From: Fibrobacter succinogenes
Lineage (GTDB): Bacteria > Fibrobacterota > Fibrobacteria > Fibrobacterales > Fibrobacteraceae
Assembly: GCA_902768715.1 (NCBI GenBank)
Contig: CACXMH010000013.1
Coordinates: forward strand, 410 to 64,409
Reading direction: 5' to 3'
DNA: 64,000 bases
Positions 6,514 through 58,400 of this stretch are shown one piece after another. Every line of letters begins with the position of its first letter. The first letter of the stretch is position 1. The notes under the pieces are model-generated. The model saw only the letters and a program-made list of their open reading frames with translations, searched no databases and was not told where the DNA came from. Made by a program: the position numbers and the translations under genes.

Positions 6514-6566
6514 GCGGATCCTCGCCTTGGTTCGACGCAGCTCACCACAGGTCGCGAGGATGACGT
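6514..6566. repeat. GGATCCTCGC...GCGAGGATGAC hairpin repeat (long-loop variant)
   Basis: The arms GGATCCTCGC and GCGAGGATGAC are separated by about 27 nt. A near-identical copy lies at 22567-22617. Confidence 0.8.
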
Positions 6567-20589: not shown

Positions 20590-22320
20590 TTAGTACTTGG
20601 CAGTGAGTACCGATGGGCACTCGACTTCCCTATAGGTGTGGTTGGGATTACCGGCCGCTTCCATGAAGTTGGCCAAGAACAGGCAACCTTGCTTGGCTTG
20701 AGAGTCGCTGCCGAAGGACGTGTTGCACTTGTTGACCAAGCACTCCTTGCGCCTGGTATAAATTTCCTCTTCGGATCCGTTATATCCGGCTTCGTTTTCG
20801 CAGACGCTTAAAAGTCCGCCATAACGCTCGCCCATATTGCCACTCCAACCCATCAGGGAACTACAGCCGTCAAATGCACCATATCCACCGCCCGGAATCA
20901 TAATGTCGAATTGCTGGTGGCTCACATCGTAGCCAATGTTGGAGGCCATGACGATAAGTTTTTTGCCCTTGAGTTTCTTGTGATTCAGCGTGGTTTCGTA
21001 TTTGCCCTCGCCAGTAAAGGTAAGCTCAAAGCACCTACCGCAGGCGGCGTTTGTCGGAACGGCCGCGAAAGCAAAGCCGATATTTGAACAACCGTCAATG
21101 GTAAACGGAATCTGGCTAATGCAAGTTGCCATGGGACCGCCATCACAGACACTGGCAGCACCCCAGTCTGAAGACTTCGTTGTGCCCTTGTTCGAGCATT
21201 GGCTTGCGAGGTTTTGGGTGTTTGCTGCCCAGGAACAGCTGGGCTTGCAGCAGTCCCAATAACGGCTAGCAAAACCACTTCCCGAGTCACCACCCTTGGC
21301 AACGATGTTCGGGCAGCTTCCTGTCTGCTGGCTTGTAGAACTGGGAGTCTGCTGCTGGGAGTTGGAACTGGGAGTCTGCTGGGAGTTGGAACTCGGAGTC
21401 GGGTTAGGATTGGGATTCGGGTTCGGGTTAGGATTGGGATTCGGGTTCGAGACTGTGCCCACATCTGCGCAGTTATTTCCCGTTGGATCGTACCAGCATT
21501 GTAAAACGCAGGATGCATCATAAGAGTACTGTTCCTCATGGGCTCCTCTCAGACCATGCGCATAATGATCGACACATTGACTCGAAACACTGTCGTAGCA
21601 TTTGTTATCGCCGCAGTTATCCCCCGATGAAGCAGAGTTTTGCGTCTGGTTGCTTGCAGAGCTGGTCGTATTGTTGTTCTGGTTGTTGCTTCCGTTGCTT
21701 GCAGAGCTGGTCGTATTGTTGTTCTGGTTATTATTGCCACCGTTGCTTGCAGAACTGGTTGTGTTGTTGTTCTGGTTGTTGTTGCCGCCGTTGCTTGCAG
21801 AACTGGTCACCGTCTGCTGGTTGGCGTTGCTTGTGGGGTTGGAGGCTTCTGCAGAGGATTCTGTAGTCTTGTTCGGATTTTCGGCGATGATGTCGCCATT
21901 GTTGTCCACAATGTCGCCATTGTCATCTACTTTACCTACATCGTTACCTTCGGTATCCGTAACTTTGCCGTCGCCGTCAACCACCAGCTTCTGCCCGTCA
22001 TCAGTCGTGACGACTTTTACATCAGACAGATTTTCATCATCGATGTTTTCTACGATGGGGTTGCCGTCGTCATCAGTGATTTTGCGGTCGGCATAATGCC
22101 CAACGGCATTCCATTGTTCATCGAAGACACTTCCATCTTCTGTGATGTAGTATTTCTGTCCGTCTTGATCAAGAACCTGGACATTTTCGGCCATATTCGG
22201 AATGAGATTGGCCGGGTTTACGGTGGTGTTGTCGGTGCAGTTCCAGGCGAGCATGAGCGCACCCGCAACCAACATTGATTTGAAGAACGGAAATTTCATG
22301 GTACCTCTCTTTATACCCAT
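20590..22320 (-). CDS. Secreted endo-beta-1,4-glucanase, glycoside hydrolase family 45, with long low-complexity linkers
   Basis: The C-terminal domain carries GH45 signatures (SRYWDCCKPSCSWA, CGRCFELTFTG, KKLIVMASNIG, FDIMIPGGGYGAFDGC). A signal peptide, a D/G/N-rich region, N/S-rich tandem repeats and a (PN)n linker lie upstream. Confidence 0.85.
   Translation of the reverse strand: MGIKRGTMKFPFFKSMLVAGALMLAWNCTDNTTVNPANLIPNMAENVQVLDQDGQKYYITEDGSVFDEQWNAVGHYADRKITDDDGNPIVENIDDENLSDVKVVTTDDGQKLVVDGDGKVTDTEGNDVGKVDDNGDIVDNNGDIIAENPNKTTESSAEASNPTSNANQQTVTSSASNGGNNNQNNNTTSSASNGGNNNQNNNTTSSASNGSNNQNNNTTSSASNQTQNSASSGDNCGDNKCYDSVSSQCVDHYAHGLRGAHEEQYSYDASCVLQCWYDPTGNNCADVGTVSNPNPNPNPNPNPNPNPTPSSNSQQTPSSNSQQQTPSSTSQQTGSCPNIVAKGGDSGSGFASRYWDCCKPSCSWAANTQNLASQCSNKGTTKSSDWGAASVCDGGPMATCISQIPFTIDGCSNIGFAFAAVPTNAACGRCFELTFTGEGKYETTLNHKKLKGKKLIVMASNIGYDVSHQQFDIMIPGGGYGAFDGCSSLMGWSGNMGERYGGLLSVCENEAGYNGSEEEIYTRRKECLVNKCNTSFGSDSQAKQGCLFLANFMEAAGNPNHTYREVECPSVLTAKY
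21401..21448. repeat. Coding microsatellite-like (GGGTTN)n tract encoding a (PN)n linker
   Basis: gggttaggattgggattcgggttcgggttaggattgggattcgggttc; it translates on the minus strand to PNPNPNPNPNPNPNP. Confidence 0.9.
21650..21805. repeat. Coding tandem repeat, about 3.3 copies of 45-48 nt (SSASNGGNNNQNNNTT units)
   Basis: Repeated ttgcttgcaga(g/a)ctggt(c/t)gt(a/g)ttgttgttctggtt... units inside the GH45 gene. Confidence 0.9.
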
Positions 22321-22546: not shown

Positions 22547-22652
22547 ACCCTAATACCTACATCTAGCGGATCCTCGCCTTGGTTCGACTTCGCTTACCAC
22601 AGGTCGCGAGGATGACAATCCTAGCCCCTAGATCCTAGATCCTAACCCCTGG
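22547..22652. repeat. Composite repeat: 3 heptads, GGATCCTCGC...GCGAGGATGAC hairpin, then 5 CTAG-type heptads
   Basis: accctaa tacctac atctag, then the hairpin at 22567-22617, then atcctag cccctag atcctag atcctaa cccctgg. The last heptads contain the stop codon of the 22642-23646 gene. Confidence 0.8.
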
Positions 22653-27533: not shown

Positions 27534-28547
27534 CTACTCTTCTACAACCAGGTCCATGGCCCGTTGGAGCATTCCGGCGGCGTCTTTTGTTTTGGGGGCT
27601 TCTTGGCTCAAGACCTGACGGAATTTTCGGGCGCCGGGGAGTCCAGTGAACAGCCCGTAGAGGTGGCGTGTGAGGATGGTAGCTGGAGTCCCTTTGGAAA
27701 ATTCCTTTTCCACATAGGGCAGATAGGCTTCGAGAACCGCTTTGCGGGACGCGGGCTTCCCTTCTTTTGTCATTCCCGGCTTGGCCGGGAATCTCCCATC
27801 ACAGAATATTCTCTCGTCGGCATCCCGCAGGAACCAAGGATTCTCGTAGGCTTCGCGACCCACCATCACGCCGTCCAGGTCTTTCAGCTGTTCTTCTACC
27901 TGGTCCATGGTTTTGATGCCGCCGTTGATGGAAATGTTCAGCTGGGGCATCTCGGCCTTTAAATTGTGGACAAATTCATATTTCAACGGCGGAACTTCCC
28001 GGTTCTCCTTGGGACTGAGCCCCTTGAGCCAGGCCTTTCGGGCGTGTATAATGAAAATTCGGCAGCCTGCGTCGGCGATAGTCCCGACAAAGTTCCGGAA
28101 AAATTCCCAGCTGTCGAATTCATCTACGCCGATGCGGCACTTGATGGAAACGGGAATGGAGACGGCGTCTTGCATGGCCTTGAAACAGTCCGCCACCAGG
28201 TTCTTGTCCTTCATGAGGCAGGCACCGAAGTTTCCGTTCTGTACCCGGTCCGAAGGGCATCCGCAGTTCAGGTTCACTTCGCCAAAGCCTGCGCATTCCA
28301 CCATCTTGCTTGCCGCCGCAAGTTCTGCAGGGTCGCTTCCGCCCAGTTGCAGCACCGCGGGCATTTCGCAGTCTTCGTGGCCCAGGAACAGTTCCGGGTC
28401 CTTGCAGTGCAAAAGTCCTGTAGATACCACCATCTCGCTGTAGAGCAAGATGTTCTTGGAAATCAACCGCAAAAAATACCGCTCGTGACGGTCGGTGCAG
28501 TCCAGCATGGGGGCGATAGAAAGCCGTCGGTTGAAATCCAGGTCCAT
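27534..28547 (-). CDS. dusA: tRNA-dihydrouridine synthase A
   Basis: N-terminal RLSIAPMLDCTDRHERYFLRL and a TIM-barrel Dus pattern (NLNCGCPS, IKCRIG, IIHARKA). Confidence 0.85.
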   Translation of the reverse strand: MDLDFNRRLSIAPMLDCTDRHERYFLRLISKNILLYSEMVVSTGLLHCKDPELFLGHEDCEMPAVLQLGGSDPAELAAASKMVECAGFGEVNLNCGCPSDRVQNGNFGACLMKDKNLVADCFKAMQDAVSIPVSIKCRIGVDEFDSWEFFRNFVGTIADAGCRIFIIHARKAWLKGLSPKENREVPPLKYEFVHNLKAEMPQLNISINGGIKTMDQVEEQLKDLDGVMVGREAYENPWFLRDADERIFCDGRFPAKPGMTKEGKPASRKAVLEAYLPYVEKEFSKGTPATILTRHLYGLFTGLPGARKFRQVLSQEAPKTKDAAGMLQRAMDLVVEE

Positions 28548-28562
28548 GGGGGGAAAGATAGT

Positions 28563-28711
28563 AATTAGGGGTTAGGTATTAGGTAATAGGTTGTAGGTAT
28601 TAGGGGTGCAGGTTTCAAGAAGCGTCATCCTGAGGAGTGTAGCGACGAAGGATCCAGTCTGTAGGAATAGGTAAACTGTGGTTTTGGGTCGCTTCGCTTT
28701 GAGGAGTGAGG
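28563..28711 (-). repeat. ~150-nt composite intergenic element (heptad array, GTCATCC...GGATCC hairpin, conserved flank); inverted copy of 41989-42137
   Basis: The reverse complement aligns by eye almost base-for-base with 41989-42137 (ctcaaagc.aa.cgacc.aaaccacagtttacctattcctac.gactggatccttcgtcgct.cactcctcaggatgac.cttcttg.aacctgcaccccta...). Confidence 0.85.
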
Positions 28712-28734: not shown

Positions 28735-28763
28735 TGTCATCCTCGCGAAGGCGAGGATCCGCC
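28735..28763. repeat. GTCATCCTCGC gaag GCGAGGATCC hairpin repeat (short-loop variant)
   Basis: Perfect ATCCTCGC/GCGAGGAT stem. The same unit occurs at 53013-53040. Confidence 0.85.
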
Positions 28764-33654: not shown

Positions 33655-33737
33655 GTCATCCTGGAGCGCGTAGCGCGATAGGATCCACCCCAATTTGTCA
33701 TGCCCCGTCATCCTGGAGCGAAGCGACGGGATCCAGT
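33655..33737. repeat. Two GTCATCCTGGAGCG...GGATCC hairpin repeats
   Basis: gtcatcctggagcgcgtagcgcgataggatcc and gtcatcctggagcgaagcgacgggatccagtc. The second resembles 28623-28658 and 42047-42078. Confidence 0.8.
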
Positions 33738-41988: not shown

Positions 41989-42137
41989 CCTCACACTTCA
42001 AAGCAAAACGACCTCAAACCACAGTTTACCTATTCCTACGGACTGGATCCTTCGTCGCTGCACTCCTCAGGATGACACTTCTTGTAACCTGCACCCCTAC
42101 AACCTACAACCTACAACCTAACCACTAGCCCCTAACC
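41989..42137 (+). repeat. ~150-nt composite intergenic element, inverted copy of 28563-28711, ending at the rnhB ATG
   Basis: The modules are a conserved flank, the hairpin GGATCCTTCGTCGCTGCACTCCTCAGGATGAC, then the heptads cctgcac ccctaca acctaca acctaca acctaac cactagc ccctaac. Confidence 0.85.
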
Positions 42138-42857
42138 ATGAAATACAAGAATCCCGACTTTATGTCAGCCGTCACCACTCCTATTGAGGGTGAAATTGCC
42201 TTCCGCAACTACGCCGAATCTACTTTTGGCCCTAATTATATTATAGTAGGTATCGACGAAGTTGGCCGCGGCCCGTTGGCGGGCCCTGTGGTGGCTTGTG
42301 CCGCCGTGCTCAAATCTGCCGATATTTTGTCCGTATTGAACGATTCGAAAAAGTTCACTCGACCCAAGCGAGAAGCTATTTACGACAAAGTAAAAGATGC
42401 CTGTGAATGCTATGCCATCGCCAGCGCCAGCGTTGAGGAAATTGACCGCCTGAACATCTTGGAAGCCGATTTCTTGGCCATGCGGCGGGCATTGCAGGCG
42501 TTGGGTATGACGGAAATCACGGAAAAACAGCCCGAACTACCCGTGGAGGTCCGGGGACATTTTAAGCCGGGTGCGACCGTTCTAGTAGCGGTGGATGGAA
42601 ATTTGAAAATTCGCGGTTTGGACCAGGAGTGCCAGTTCCCCGTGATAAAAGGGGACGGTTTGGTGGCCTCTATTTCTGCGGCATCAATCCTTGCTAAGGT
42701 CTTCCGTGATCGCTATATGGACCGCCTGGCTCAGGAATATCCGGGTTACGGCTTTGAAAAACATGCTGGCTACGGCACTAAGGCACACCTGGCCGCCATT
42801 CGCAAGCAGGGCTTTTCGCCGGTGCACCGCAAGACGTTCCATCCGAAAGGACTGTAG
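42138..42857 (+). CDS. rnhB: Ribonuclease HII
   Basis: IVGIDEVGRGPLAGPVV catalytic motif, DSKK, and a C-terminal HR.TF motif. Confidence 0.9.
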   Translation: MKYKNPDFMSAVTTPIEGEIAFRNYAESTFGPNYIIVGIDEVGRGPLAGPVVACAAVLKSADILSVLNDSKKFTRPKREAIYDKVKDACECYAIASASVEEIDRLNILEADFLAMRRALQALGMTEITEKQPELPVEVRGHFKPGATVLVAVDGNLKIRGLDQECQFPVIKGDGLVASISAASILAKVFRDRYMDRLAQEYPGYGFEKHAGYGTKAHLAAIRKQGFSPVHRKTFHPKGL

Positions 42858-42860
42858 AAA

Positions 42861-42936
42861 ATGAGTAATGAGTTGCGAGTTGTGAGTCGTGAGTAGTGGG
42901 AAATTACACCCCTCACACCCCACACTTCACATCTAG
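42861..42936. repeat. Dyad-symmetric heptad array (11 units)
   Basis: atgagta atgagtt gcgagtt gtgagtc gtgagta gtgggaa attacac ccctcac accccac acttcac atctag. The left-arm GTGAG units face right-arm CTCAC units. Confidence 0.85.
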
Positions 42937-43062
42937 AAAACGCTCTGGGAACAGAAAAATGCCCATTTTGGGGCGTTTCTTAGAAAAAACTTGCACGAAT
43001 GGGTTATTCTTTATATATTTCCCCGTGATTTTAATGCAAACTCTTTTATGAATGGAGAATCT

Positions 43063-44115
43063 ATGAAGAAACTTGCAATGGTTGTTTTCCTTGCCTCTAT
43101 GGTGGGCGGGGCTTATGCTCAGGCTCCTGCTGCACCCGCTCCCGCACCGGCTCCTGCGGCCGCACCGGCTCCTGCCGCTGCTCCTGCACCAGCCCCCGCT
43201 GCACAGCCTGCCCCTGCCGCACAACCGGTAGCCGCAGCCCCTGCTGCTGAAGCGGCTCCTGCTGCACCTGTAGCCGAAGCCCCTGCCGCAGATCCCTGCG
43301 CTGTCGATTCCCTGGGTCAGCCGATTAACGCTGACGCTTGCGCCGCCGAACAGGCTCGCCAGCAGGCGGTAGCCGATTCTATCGCTGCCGCCGAAGAAGC
43401 TGCCCGTCAGCAGGCAATTGCGGACTCCATCGCCGCCGAACAGGCTCGCCAGCAGGCTATAGCTGATTCTATCGCCGCTGCCGAAGAAGCCCGCAAGCAG
43501 GCCGAGGCCGATTCTATTGCCGCCGCTGAAGCTGCCCAGAAGGCCGAAGCCGACAAGGCTGCCGCAGCAGGTCGCCTTGCTCTTGGTATTACCGGGTCGG
43601 CGGGCTTCGGTATGTTTAATGTCAAGTACGACGACAACCACTTTAAGGACTTCCCCTTTACTTTTGGGGTGAGCGGACTTTTCACTAAGGGTATGTTCGG
43701 CGCTCGCTTGGCCGGAACCATGCAGTACAATCGCCTCTATGTGGGTGAATCCCGCAACCGTACCGTAAACGAAGGTTACTGGCGCGCTGGTGCCGGCCTC
43801 TACGGACGTTTTATGCCCAACCAGAAAGAGGACGGACTTATTGTTGAACTGGGCGTTTCCGGTGCATGGGTCACTTCCAATGACATCGTTCTGTACCCCA
43901 ATGCTTCCAAGCACGCCTCTGTGGTTTACAAGCCCCAAGCCCAATATGATGTTGAACTGGGATTCGGTTACGGGATCAATTTTGCCGGTATGGCCGGTGA
44001 ACTGGGTGCTTATGCCGCCTATGACATCCTTGAGACTATGGAATTCACCAGCGACACAGATGGCCGTGCTTGGCATGTCGGTGCTCGTGCCACATTCTGG
44101 CTTCTTAATCTTTAA
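43063..44115 (+). CDS. Secreted/outer-membrane protein with (AP)n and AEQARQQAIADSIAA repeats and a beta-barrel-like C-terminal half
   Basis: Signal peptide MKKLAMVVFLASMVGGAYAQ, an Ala/Pro-rich tract, about 4 copies of the A(E/Q)ARQQA(I/V)ADSIAA repeat, and alternating aromatic beta-strand patterns. Confidence 0.6.
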   Translation: MKKLAMVVFLASMVGGAYAQAPAAPAPAPAPAAAPAPAAAPAPAPAAQPAPAAQPVAAAPAAEAAPAAPVAEAPAADPCAVDSLGQPINADACAAEQARQQAVADSIAAAEEAARQQAIADSIAAEQARQQAIADSIAAAEEARKQAEADSIAAAEAAQKAEADKAAAAGRLALGITGSAGFGMFNVKYDDNHFKDFPFTFGVSGLFTKGMFGARLAGTMQYNRLYVGESRNRTVNEGYWRAGAGLYGRFMPNQKEDGLIVELGVSGAWVTSNDIVLYPNASKHASVVYKPQAQYDVELGFGYGINFAGMAGELGAYAAYDILETMEFTSDTDGRAWHVGARATFWLLNL

Positions 44116-49904: not shown

Positions 49905-49988
49905 TTATAGGTTTTAGGTTATAGGTATTAGGTTTTAGGTAGTAGGTATTAGGTCCGAGGCCCTAGCCCCTAGATCCTAGCCCCTAAA
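49905..49988. repeat. Dyad-symmetric heptad array (12 units) between pal and ybgF
   Basis: ttatagg ttttagg ttatagg tattagg ttttagg tagtagg tattagg tccgagg ccctagc ccctaga tcctagc ccctaaa. Confidence 0.9.
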
Positions 49989-52787: not shown

Positions 52788-52962
52788 ATGTGAGGTCGGG
52801 GCTTCGCCCCTTTGAGGTATGGGGTATGAGGTGTGGTCCTTCAGGTCAAGCAATGTGGAATGTGTAGTGAATCATGAGTTGTGAGTTGTGAGGTGTGGGT
52901 CGTGAGTAGTGTGTAATGTGTAGTGTGGAGTGTGGAGTGTGGGATGAATAATGAACGATGAT
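52788..52962 (+). repeat. Heptad array, about 25 consecutive 7-nt units of type NNNTGNG
   Basis: In register from 52788: ...caatgtg gaatgtg tagtgaa tcatgag ttgtgag ttgtgag gtgtggg tcgtgag tagtgtg taatgtg tagtgtg gagtgtg gagtgtg ggatgaa taatgaa cgatgat. Confidence 0.9.
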
Positions 52963-52970
52963 TCCATCTT

Positions 52971-53099
52971 CGTCATGTTCGCGAAGGCGAACATCTGCTA
53001 GCTGTTATCAAGCGGATCCTCGCCTTCGCGAGGATGACGTTCCTCAAAGCGAAGCGACCTCAAACCCCTAGCCCCTAGATCCTAGCCCCTAGCCCCTAA
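52971..53099. repeat. Two hairpin repeats, the conserved flank module, and 5 CCCCTAG-type heptads
   Basis: GTTCGC gaag GCGAAC; GGATCCTCGC cttc GCGAGGATGAC; cctcaaagcgaagcgacctcaaacc (the same flank as in 28563-28711 and 41989-42137); cccctag cccctag atcctag cccctag cccctaa. Confidence 0.85.
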
Positions 53100-56087: not shown

Positions 56088-56825
56088 TCAGTGTGATAAC
56101 CTAAAGGTTAAGCCGAAGGTGTGGCTTTTATGGGATATTCTGTCTGCGCTTTTTCTTACCTTGGTGTAACTGTAGTGCTCGTTTTTATCGCGGAGCCAAC
56201 TGATAGTATAATTTAAAGCGAAACCGTAATTCCAGAGTCTGTTCATCCTCCATTCTTTACCAATTTCGAATTTACAAAATAGGTTTATGAATCCAGTCAC
56301 CATCGATGAGTCCCTGTATACTTGGTTAAAGTCATATGCGGTTACTTTAAAGTAGTCGAGTTCAAAACCTGCATTGACACCAATGAAAGTTCCGTACATC
56401 AGGCCAGTTATGTCTTGAACTGGGTAGATTTCTAAGCCTCCGCCCGAAGATACCCTGAAAGTGCCGTCATCATCATCCTTGATAGTTACTTTATTGATCT
56501 CATTTCCATTCTCTTTGGTTATGTATTCTCCTTTGAATGAGCCTTCTCCCATACCTAAACCAAGTACCGCGTAAAGTGAAGCCATATTGGAAAAAAATCT
56601 GCCAATTCGGAATTCGACTAAGTGTAAAAAGCCAGAAAATTTTTCTGATTCGATTTCACTTACGTCATATGAGACTTTTCTGCGTTCTGTCGTATAGGCG
56701 AATCCTGGATTGGCTGAAAAATATATCCCCTTATGCTCTTGAATCGGAGGAGAGATGCTCCTTGTTTCGTATTGTGCGAATGCACAGGATGTAATCAATA
56801 GGAGTGGAACGATGAATAATTTCAT
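56088..56825 (-). CDS. Small outer-membrane beta-barrel hypothetical protein in a low-GC islet
   Basis: Signal peptide MKLFIVPLLLITSCAFAQ and an alternating beta-strand pattern. The gene and its flanks are visibly more AT-rich than their neighbours. Confidence 0.55.
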   Translation of the reverse strand: MKLFIVPLLLITSCAFAQYETRSISPPIQEHKGIYFSANPGFAYTTERRKVSYDVSEIESEKFSGFLHLVEFRIGRFFSNMASLYAVLGLGMGEGSFKGEYITKENGNEINKVTIKDDDDGTFRVSSGGGLEIYPVQDITGLMYGTFIGVNAGFELDYFKVTAYDFNQVYRDSSMVTGFINLFCKFEIGKEWRMNRLWNYGFALNYTISWLRDKNEHYSYTKVRKSADRISHKSHTFGLTFRLSH

Positions 56826-56886: not shown

Positions 56887-57861
56887 TTATTTCAATGATT
56901 TTCTAAAGACCCGGGCGACTTCGTCCGGGTCGTCGCTTTTTAGCCAGCTGAGGGTCTCGGTACCGCGGTAGCTCCAGGCGAAAATATTGTCGATGCCAGC
57001 CTTGCGGCTTTCGGCTACGGCAATGGCCAGGTCGTTTTCGCGGCCCGCTTCGATCTGGTAGGCCTTAATCCACATTTGCACGGCCTTGCCGTATTTGGCG
57101 GCCACGGTCACGAGTTTGTGGGCGGTCTCGGCGTACTTTTCGCGAACCCATTCTTCGGTGGCGCCCCGTTCCCAGTAAGGATCGCTGGCGATTTCATCTA
57201 CGCTATCCATGGATGCCACGCGGCCCCAGTCGTTGAGGCCTGCCGGAAACCAGGGCGGCAACATGCACACGCAGTTACGCTTGCCACGGGCGTGAACATC
57301 TTCCGTCATTTCCTTCAAAAAGTCGATAAGCGAATCTTCGCGGAACTTCAACACGTCTTCGGTGAGTTCGGCGGGCATCTCGTAACCGAATTGCGCGCAG
57401 AACTTTTCGCGACATTTCTCACAACGGCAGCTCCAGTTCTGGAGTCCGCCCTTCTCAAAGTAAAAATGAGGTTCATCCCAGAAGATGGTGCTTACTTTGG
57501 TCGCACAGACGGATTCAATCCAGCGGTGCATGTAGGCCCGGAATTCCGGATGGTTGGGGCAGGCGGCCACCTTAGGCTTGCCGTCCAGTGCCACCTGGCA
57601 CAGGTCGTGGTTACGGGCGGTAAGTTCGGAATAGGCTTCTCCGCCGAATACGCGGCCCACTCCCCAGGGGTTCACATAGACTGTTAGACCTAGCTCGGCG
57701 GTCCGGTCCACGATTTCAGCCATGGTGTCGTAGTAATACTGCTGGTCTTCTTCGCTCCAAGTGTGGAGCACGGCGTTGAAACCTGCCGCCTTGATGTCTT
57801 GCATGTCGGTTAACGCATGCTTTGGCGTGCGTACGCCGAAATAACTGACGCCTTTAATCAT
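56887..57861 (-). CDS. Hypothetical TIM-barrel, glycoside-hydrolase-like protein
   Basis: Alternating beta/alpha pattern (GVSYFGV, GFNAVLHTW, GLTVYVNPWG, IFWDEPHF) plus a CRCEKCREKFC cluster. The family assignment is uncertain. Confidence 0.35.
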   Translation of the reverse strand: MIKGVSYFGVRTPKHALTDMQDIKAAGFNAVLHTWSEEDQQYYYDTMAEIVDRTAELGLTVYVNPWGVGRVFGGEAYSELTARNHDLCQVALDGKPKVAACPNHPEFRAYMHRWIESVCATKVSTIFWDEPHFYFEKGGLQNWSCRCEKCREKFCAQFGYEMPAELTEDVLKFREDSLIDFLKEMTEDVHARGKRNCVCMLPPWFPAGLNDWGRVASMDSVDEIASDPYWERGATEEWVREKYAETAHKLVTVAAKYGKAVQMWIKAYQIEAGRENDLAIAVAESRKAGIDNIFAWSYRGTETLSWLKSDDPDEVARVFRKSLK

Positions 57862-57883
57862 ACAGGCTCAATATAGAACTTAG

Positions 57884-57967
57884 GAGTAATGTGTAGTGTG
57901 TAATGTGTAATGAGAGGTGTACAATGTATAATCAGTCATTTCACATTATACATTCCACATCTCACAC
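57884..57967. repeat. Dyad-symmetric heptad array (12 units) containing a perfect 10-bp inverted repeat
   Basis: gagtaat gtgtagt gtgtaat gtgtaat gagaggt gtacaat gtataat cagtcat ttcacat tatacat tccacat ctcacac. AATGTATAAT (57923-57932) pairs with ATTATACATT (57945-57954). Confidence 0.9.
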
Positions 57968-57980
57968 CGCCGTGTAGCGG

Positions 57981-58400
57981 CTAGTTTTCTGCCCACTGTG
58001 GCGTAGGGGTTTTCCGCAGTACCTGGTCCAGGGTCTCCCGCCACTCGTCTTCGGTAAGTGGCCTGCGAATCCAGTACAGGCCCTCATCTTCTTTTTCGAT
58101 GGGCATGGTGTCCGGGACGATTTCTATGATCCAGGATTCGGGAATGCTGTTGCGGAGCCTCTTGCTGAAGGCGATGTTCATATCGGTGGGCCTGTCGGCG
58201 TGGTCAAAGATGATAAGCGCCGGGGAATCTCCCGTAATGAGCGCCGTCTCCAGGATGTTCGCCGCCTCTTCGATGGTATTGCAGGTGTACATGGTGGAAT
58301 CTTCGGCCATGTCGTTTTCTAGAAGCCAGCGGAGAGTCCACTGGCTCAGGCGGTCCAAGCTGCCCGGCGAAGAAGGGGCTATGAAGAATATGTGTCCCAC
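57981..58400 (-). CDS. Hypothetical protein, possibly a receiver-like (pseudo-receiver) fold
   Basis: 139 aa with a beta/alpha pattern that loosely resembles CheY (IFFIAPS, LIIFDHAD). The acidic pocket is not canonical. Confidence 0.3.
   Translation of the reverse strand: MGHIFFIAPSSPGSLDRLSQWTLRWLLENDMAEDSTMYTCNTIEEAANILETALITGDSPALIIFDHADRPTDMNIAFSKRLRNSIPESWIIEIVPDTMPIEKEDEGLYWIRRPLTEDEWRETLDQVLRKTPTPQWAEN

Follow-up and report, generated by a model that had tools for sequence, protein, structure and literature searches.

The 84 nt at positions 57884-57967 of the 64-kb stretch of Fibrobacter DNA analysed here (the window) are a pair of inverted 7-base tandem-repeat arrays, able to form an imperfect hairpin with several pairing registers. 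They are one allele, specific to this locus, of a class of intergenic heptanucleotide arrays that change fast and occur throughout Fibrobacter. We consider it probable that the feature is a dispensable, slippage-born hairpin cassette of this class, made of inverted heptad arrays and placed between two cistrons. The initial annotation of this DNA had recognised the heptads and an inverted repeat at their centre; our analysis partly confirms its observations and partly supports its interpretation. We regard the significance of the feature as moderate.

An inverted pair of heptad arrays between two genes

The feature lies between two genes of the minus strand, the upstream one encoding 139 aa (57981-58400) and the downstream one 324 aa (56887-57861). 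The initial annotation had placed it between the stop of the former and the start of the latter, and this is correct: the array lies 14 nt past the stop codon of the 139-aa ORF and 22 nt ahead of the start codon of the 324-aa ORF. Searches of Pfam and NCBIfam assigned neither protein to a family. Sequence matches of the flanking proteins in the PDB were weak ones to antibody light chains (best E-value 3e-4), which we regard as spurious. With the 324-aa protein as the anchor, we found 80 orthologous loci in Fibrobacter MAGs and F. intestinalis (best match 97% identity), and both ORFs are conserved across these 80 Fibrobacter loci. The exact 139-aa protein was found in 102 blocks of a metagenome collection. 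Among the strains that encode this identical protein, the presence of a 245-aa ORF (56088-56825), which weakly matches a family of outer-membrane beta-barrels, is variable, and in strains without it EF-P directly follows the 324-aa gene. Scans for sigma-70 promoters and for terminators returned nothing above chance in the intergenic region.

Re-reading the sequence returned exactly the twelve heptads originally reported. On the plus strand, seven of them (GAGTAAT, GTGTAGT, GTGTAAT, GTGTAAT, GAGAGGT, GTACAAT and GTATAAT) form a G-type, C-poor arm at 57884-57932, and four (TTCACAT, TATACAT, TCCACAT and CTCACAC) form a C-type, G-poor arm at 57940-57967. Read on the sense (minus) strand, 57884-57932 is the C-type, G-poor arm that adjoins the start of the downstream gene, and 57940-57967 is the G-type arm, 3' of the stop of the upstream gene. 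There is no GGG tract within 57884-57967. The reported 10-bp inverted repeat, AATGTATAAT at 57923-57932 and ATTATACATT at 57945-57954, consists of exact reverse complements separated by a 12-nt spacer. In this register the dyad centre, or loop, is 57933-57944 (CAGTCATTTCAC), where lag-7 identity drops to 3/7.

The exact 10-bp repeat is the core of two longer, imperfect pairings of the arms, one between 57889-57913 and 57936-57960 (25 nt, 84%) and the other between 57911-57932 and 57945-57966 (22 nt, 82%), whose registers are 14 nt apart. Pairing in several registers is expected, since both arms are 7-periodic. Structure prediction, which had been proposed along with the initial annotation, gave a stable fold on both strands, with RNA folding energies of -33.2 kcal/mol for the sense strand (z -3.06) and -39.4 kcal/mol for the antisense strand (z -3.77). 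A separate, small GC hairpin (GCCGCTACACGGCGG in the sense direction) occupies 57968-57981 on the minus strand, directly 3' of the stop codon. It holds the only polymorphic intergenic positions besides one change within the array. Two other alleles at this site (L004 and L014; L-numbers are labels of the related loci or contigs that we compared) carry an unrelated small GC hairpin at the equivalent position. The minus strand also contains a 19-codon ORF (MTDYTLYTSHYTLHTTHYS) running from 57939 to 57880, which begins in the loop and crosses the stop-free C-type arm. This ORF is probably not a gene, since it is missing from one of the two main alleles at the site, the GAGTTAT allele described below.

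Lag-7 identity over the 84 nt is 0.64, a value reached by none of 20000 shuffles, and the feature thus consists of head-to-tail 7-nt units beyond chance, as is characteristic of bacterial intergenic heptanucleotide SSR arrays. The left arm alone has an identity of 0.69 (0/20000 shuffles) and the right arm alone 0.61 (8/20000 shuffles). Since each arm is periodic by itself, the period is not a by-product of the dyad symmetry. The initial annotation had reached the same conclusion, which holds because the arms are singly periodic and because period 7 is specific to the class; the argument that it offered, an unbroken heptad register through the symmetry centre, does not. TRF splits the feature into two arrays, 57886-57912 and 57937-57966, of 3.9 and 4.3 copies, and lag-7 identity falls to 2-3/7 at GAGAGGT and across the succession GTATAAT, CAGTCAT, TTCACAT. 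Direct identity between the arms at the seven phase offsets from 0 to 6 is 0.29, 0.32, 0.13, 0.18, 0.15, 0.24 and 0.25, so that offset 0 is exceeded by offset 1.

Other dyads of the class give a similar picture. The best phase offset is 0 in three of the 14 unique G/C array pairs, and in the remainder it is 1 (four pairs), 3 (three), 4 (two), 5 (one) or 6 (one); for other alleles at the target site it is 1 and 3. Because 84 nt can always be divided into twelve heptads, and because one phase will always pair heptad with heptad, the claim of a maintained register carries no information. By simple arithmetic on the arm coordinates, the offset that pairs heptad with heptad in the frame of the initial annotation is in fact 5, not 0. 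We also attempted a rigorous definition of a register kept through the centre, and abandoned it when the algebra showed that such a definition is unfalsifiable without an intrinsic phase marker.

A Fibrobacter-wide class of heptad arrays

We surveyed arrays of this type in the window together with the orthologous loci of the 324-aa protein, in total 1.39 Mb of DNA of which 92.4% lies in ORFs. Of 122 arrays detected at lag 7, 105 are intergenic although the DNA outside ORFs amounts to 7.6%; the loci are partly orthologous, and thus these and the following array counts are not fully independent. Period 7 is enriched over neighbouring periods in non-coding DNA: lags 4, 5, 8, 10, 11 and 13 gave 0-8 arrays each, and those at lags 6, 9 and 12 were coding repeats. 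By TRF, period 7 accounts for 79 arrays, period 14 for 35 and period 21 for 9. There are 54 consensus units among 94 arrays. The G-type strand has a composition of A29 C6 G35 T31 %, its complement being G-poor, and the median distance from an array to the nearest ORF end is 9 nt. In the 46 arrays with at least four mismatches, variation among units is concentrated in three adjacent columns (0.76 versus 0.68 expected, Wilcoxon p=2e-4), which suggests a unit built of a conserved 4-nt core and a variable 3-nt spacer. Six of the 105 intergenic arrays are capable of forming a G-quadruplex (G4; at least four tracts of three or more G), and the target is not one of them.

Apart from the target, the window contains arrays at 22620-22644, 28565-28604, 42096-42120, 42860-42935, 49905-49986, 52852-52942 and 53057-53098, with the units CCTAG, TAGGT, CCTACAA, GAGTTGT/CACACCC, TAGGTAT/CCCTAGC and GTGAGTT/GTGTAGT/GTGTGGA. 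REP-like hairpins, whose ends are conserved (GTCATCCT...AGGATC(C)) and whose interiors vary, occur in 26 copies in the 1.39 Mb, nine of them no more than 80 nt from a heptad array; those in the window are at 6517-6564, 22569-22616, 28624-28654, 28736-28759, 33655-33685, 42046-42076 and 53015-53038. Read in reverse complement, 42036-42135 agrees with the segment 28564-28664 at 88 of 100 positions, and each copy combines a TAGG-type heptad array with a 55-nt unique core that includes a REP-like hairpin. The array ends of the two copies abut the start codons of different genes (27534-28547 on the minus strand and 42138-42857 on the plus strand), and by its sequence the pair looks like a dispersed composite element.

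Tandem repeats in coding DNA of the window are of another kind, with periods of 24/48/93 and 45/90 (21338-21449, 21649-21822 and 43341-43530). The long ORFs 20590-22320 and 42913-44076 contain them and would yield repetitive proteins. An array of some 27 heptads in F. intestinalis ATCC 43854 (188 nt; L069, 10998-11185) lies directly 3' of the stop of the gene orthologous to the 324-aa one, its unit changing gradually along the array from AGTTCTC to AACTGAT. Units of TAACTGA, or its complement TCAGTTA, occur at L002 1688-1728, L005 9880-9913 and L069 11150-11185, 15964-16009 and 16637-16690, and TCAGTTA is also found in the GAGTTAT allele at the target site.

The arrays follow a rule of polarity, both towards each other and towards genes. 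An inverted partner lies downstream of all 10 G-type arrays and upstream of 15 of the 16 C-type arrays, and all 14 unique adjacent pairs are ordered 5'-G-type then C-type-3'. On the coding strand of the nearest gene, G-type arrays outnumber C-type arrays 40 to 11 at 3' ends, and C-type arrays outnumber G-type arrays 27 to 12 at 5' ends. The polarity is seen in unpaired, non-redundant arrays too (29:8 versus 8:14, p=0.002). From a hand tabulation of array coordinates, all 11 arms in the window appear to obey, with G-type after the stop and C-type before the start. The two strands differ in translation signals: start codons number 0.6 per 100 nt on the C-type strand versus 10.1 on the other, SD-like motifs occur on the C-type strand of 1 of 94 arrays versus 42 of 94, and the G-type strand has stops in all three frames in 68 of 94 arrays. 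SD-like motifs accompany about 28% of genes at the compared loci, and the SD is thus used, but weakly. We infer a filter on orientation that keeps false initiation signals out of the leader beside a start codon. Avoidance of translation signals need not be the cause, as a mutational or mechanistic bias could also produce the polarity.

The cyanobacterial STRR heptanucleotide repeats are likewise of period 7, intergenic, and present as several unit families in a genome. The Fibrobacter arrays differ from these and from other long SSRs in phylum and in units. In many prokaryotes, heptanucleotides have been described as more abundant than any other class of long SSR, and the ~7-nt footprint of the polymerase has been proposed to favour 7-nt slippage (Mrazek et al., 2007, as cited in PMC4679880 and PMC4692102). 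The Fibrobacter arrays resemble the long heptanucleotide SSRs, as summarised in those two papers, in their period, their intergenic location, the several unit families per genome and the proposed slippage by 7 nt; strict G-then-C dyads and an allele series at a single site are absent from the same summaries of STRRs and long SSRs (PMC4679880, PMC4692102).

Closer parallels are known. In Xanthomonas and Nostoc, arrays of the heptamers GGGAATC and GGGGA(C/T)T, respectively, are 89-93% intergenic and near ORFs, form 70-75 convergent inverted pairs per genome, and, relative to the coding strand, keep their G-rich strand on the downstream side of genes (Rehm et al., 2015; PMC4692102). They are scarce in divergent gaps, their length and sequence differ between close relatives, and a function was not identified (PMC4692102). 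The intergenic bias, the proximity to ORF ends, the convergent inverted pairs, the scarcity in divergent gaps and the gene-relative polarity, with the G-rich strand downstream of genes, are all found in Fibrobacter. On the other hand, Xanthomonas and Nostoc each have a single G-tract unit family with demonstrated G4 potential, whereas the Fibrobacter arrays comprise the 54 units counted above and are G4-capable in only six cases. In marine Beggiatoaceae, cyanobacteria and some Bacteroidetes, TAACTGA direct repeats abut start codons (MacGregor, 2015; PMC4679880). As in those, heptamers in Fibrobacter are located a few nucleotides from starts that lack canonical ribosome-binding sites, and they carry stops in all frames. 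The TAACTGA system has one dominant unit, in forward orientation upstream of genes, and hardly any inverted pairs, with one indirect repeat in 170 sets (PMC4679880), whereas the target is made of GTGTAAT-type units.

Given these matches to the Xanthomonas/Nostoc and TAACTGA arrays, the Fibrobacter arrays belong to a known kind of bacterial heptamer array. Our literature search found no paper on heptanucleotide repeats in Fibrobacter. They extend the known kind to a new phylum, with an extreme diversity of units, no dependence on G4 potential and, at one inter-cistronic site, a series of alleles. Heptanucleotides outnumber every other class of long SSR in many bacteria, although neither a function nor a cause for the number 7 is established. 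In Fibrobacter, dozens of unrelated units, almost none of them G4-capable, keep the period, the arrangement in inverted pairs and the polarity towards genes, and this case separates the polarity rule from its earlier explanation by G4 formation. The rule (G-type after stops, C-type before starts, pairs G then C) now holds in three phyla, in Fibrobacter without G4 potential.

Alternative alleles at a single inter-cistronic site

Eight lineages lack any spacer at the target site, and their two genes overlap as ATGA. This overlap argues for a single transcription unit, and the element is dispensable, since sister lineages with the overlap do without it. The window belongs to a shallow clade in which the same site is filled by dyads of at least seven unrelated units. 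These are the GTGTAAT allele of the window, L002 and L084; the GAGTTAT/ACTCACN allele, arranged around a GC-rich core (L001, L003, L005, L009, L010, L081-L083, L085 and L092); and the alleles AGTTACT (L004), AATGTGA (L012, L018), AGAACTT (L014, L022), CAGATTT/GGAATTC (L020, L021) and GATAATG (L031, L035). The arms of an allele fit their own partners and not those of other alleles, the energy of the duplex between arms being -22.3 kcal/mol within an allele versus -12.7 kcal/mol across alleles.

Length differences between copies occur in whole units. In the GAGTTAT allele the left arm varies through indels of 7, 14 or 28 nt and retains 2, 3, 4 or 6 full units (3 in L009 only), beside a right arm that is constant, and the right arm of L035 is two units longer than that of L031. 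Slippage by 7 or 14 nt at a time is therefore real, and the lengths of the two arms are not kept equal. The window-type allele has a constant length in 11 other sources, namely L002, L084 and nine of ten metagenome contigs. These ten contigs were returned with the exact 139-aa protein, and the nine carry the window-type array with 0 changes in 84 nt. L092 encodes the identical 139-aa protein and carries the GAGTTAT allele.

The two main alleles have only the stop-codon side and a 30-nt leader in common. This leader (57862-57891, minus strand; ...ATTACTCCTAAGTTCTATATTGAGCCTGT and then ATG in the sense direction) marks the downstream boundary of the exchangeable cassette. We considered homology between the two main cassettes and rejected it: their global alignment score of 0 exceeds that of shuffles no more than marginally (16/1000) and is within the range of unrelated alleles, and it is therefore not evidence of descent. 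After the PQW codons, the spacers of three unrelated alleles (window, L005 and L004) are 131, 132 and 132 nt long, a near-equality that may be a coincidence or a length constraint.

Seven window-type haplotypes segregate at 190 of 1392 coding sites (140/464 third positions and 50/928 first and second positions) and at 1 of 84 array positions. In the GAGTTAT allele, substitution diversity is 7/106 versus 245/1398 in coding sequence. The flanks of the two allele classes have 97 shared polymorphisms and a single fixed difference in 1392 sites, and they contain 1014 four-gamete-incompatible site pairs. Thus, the flanks recombine freely, and the cassettes, being non-homologous, cannot recombine with each other. 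The two alleles segregate within one recombining population. Our first reading of the near-invariance of the array was purifying selection, which we no longer prefer to a young allele because, with flanks that recombine freely, the latter explains the low diversity within alleles equally well. Such near-invariance is unlike a hypervariable neutral SSR and could reflect selection at the sequence level, which lies outside the model that we favour. The signals conflict, as the degenerate units suggest age and the nil diversity suggests youth or constraint. A single inter-cistronic site that is either empty or filled by one of several unrelated hairpin cassettes, all within a single recombining rumen population, provides a clean test bed.

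Origin and possible roles of the cassette

In the explanation that we favour, arrays arise and change by slippage of 7 or 14 nt at a time, and strains exchange whole cassettes via homologous recombination in the flanking genes. The hairpin would lie inside a two-gene transcript and, if active at all, would act as inter-cistronic punctuation that uncouples two formerly overlapping cistrons; it may protect the 3' end of the upstream cistron or damp read-through. Orientation would be constrained, such that the arm beside the downstream start is G-free and hence without false start codons or Shine-Dalgarno-like sites, and such that the stop-rich G-type arm is placed after the upstream stop. The REP and BIME elements of enterobacteria are dispensable extragenic palindromes in operons that can stabilise upstream mRNA and are present or absent among relatives, and REPs are multi-copy elements of conserved sequence mobilised by RAYT transposases. 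The target may be likened to REP/BIME, but unlike REPs it is built of tandem heptads and is single-copy in the DNA searched (1.45 Mb).

The initial annotation had suggested that the feature acts as a terminator, an attenuator or a protein-binding palindrome. The protein-binding palindrome is not supported and a conserved operator can be rejected, as the sequence is unconserved across relatives, close ones having at least seven unrelated unit types or nothing at the orthologous site. It is also unlikely that the feature is a transcription terminator or attenuator that halts or modulates RNA polymerase between the two genes. As in a Rho-independent terminator, there is a stem-loop just after a stop codon, the hairpin beginning 14 nt past it and being significantly stable on both strands; dyads of the class are found in 17.8% of convergent gaps versus 6.9% of divergent gaps, and two other alleles (L004 and L036) end with a run of T5-6. 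However, the stem is AT-rich and mismatched, no U-tract follows it on the sense strand, and of 20 dyads of the class a single one has at least six T among the eight downstream nucleotides. The ATGA overlap of the genes in relatives without the array, which points to one transcription unit, argues against termination between them. The 22 nt that precede the next start would have to hold a promoter, and the scan found none; moreover, unpaired single arms follow the same placement rules. Somewhat less doubtful is a functional element of RNA or DNA under sequence constraint, such as a 5'-UTR or 3'-UTR module recognised by a protein or an RNA, of which each allele would be a selected version. The array is less diverse than first and second codon positions, the GAGTTAT allele is less diverse than coding sequence, and unit variation is concentrated in three contiguous columns, all of which speak for such an element. 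Yet a young allele suffices given the free recombination of the flanks, the alleles have no sequence in common, sister lineages lack the element, and the period of 7 differs from the helical repeat of DNA. Nor does the element belong to an Rfam family: the covariance search of Rfam 15 returned sub-threshold microRNA-like hairpins only, the best at 23 bits versus a gathering score of 106.

About as improbable as such a constrained element is a small mobile or site-specifically exchanged cassette (MITE/REPIN-like), with incidental heptad arms and near-identity among strains due to recent spread. It would account for the presence or absence of the array and the discrete, unrelated alleles among very close strains, as well as for an array that is almost invariant in diverged backgrounds, and the class does include the dispersed array with a REP-like core (28564-28664 and 42036-42135) and the nine arrays with a REP-like hairpin close by. 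Against it, the target has only orthologous copies in 1.45 Mb, of which 64 kb are from the same genome, and a comparison of filled with empty sites by eye showed no target-site duplication. The limits of the alleles fall where homology ends, as in ordinary homologous exchange, and no transposase or RAYT was noticed near the locus. A contingency (phase-variable) locus, at which slippage in heptad number tunes expression of the downstream gene, is very improbable. The copy-number polymorphism of the sister GAGTTAT allele in steps of 7 and 14 nt and the short median distance of arrays from ORF ends speak for it, but the window-type allele has no length variation in its 11 other sources, the units are imperfect, so that slippage should be slow, and arrays are found next to genes of every kind, as they are in Xanthomonas, for which this role was considered unlikely (PMC4692102).

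There is also an outside chance that heptad dyads are a sequence-agnostic gene-boundary module, defined by period and polarity alone, with a machinery of ~7-nt step that both generates and reads the arrays, the near-invariant alleles being selected versions. Should that be true, candidates for the shared machinery would be polymerase slippage footprints, or single-strand binders of the cold-shock/S1 type that occupy ~7 nt.

Heptad arrays account for many odd short intergenic regions encountered in annotation, and they are probably awkward for the short-read assembly of Fibrobacter MAGs. Six of the compared contigs (L071, L073 and L077-L080) carry a Fibrobacter-type gene pair at 64-67% identity together with heptad arrays, under the labels Eggerthellaceae, Oscillospiraceae, Sodaliphilus, Senegalimassilia, Methanomethylophilaceae and Alistipes. 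These are probably mis-binned Fibrobacter-like contigs from one study.
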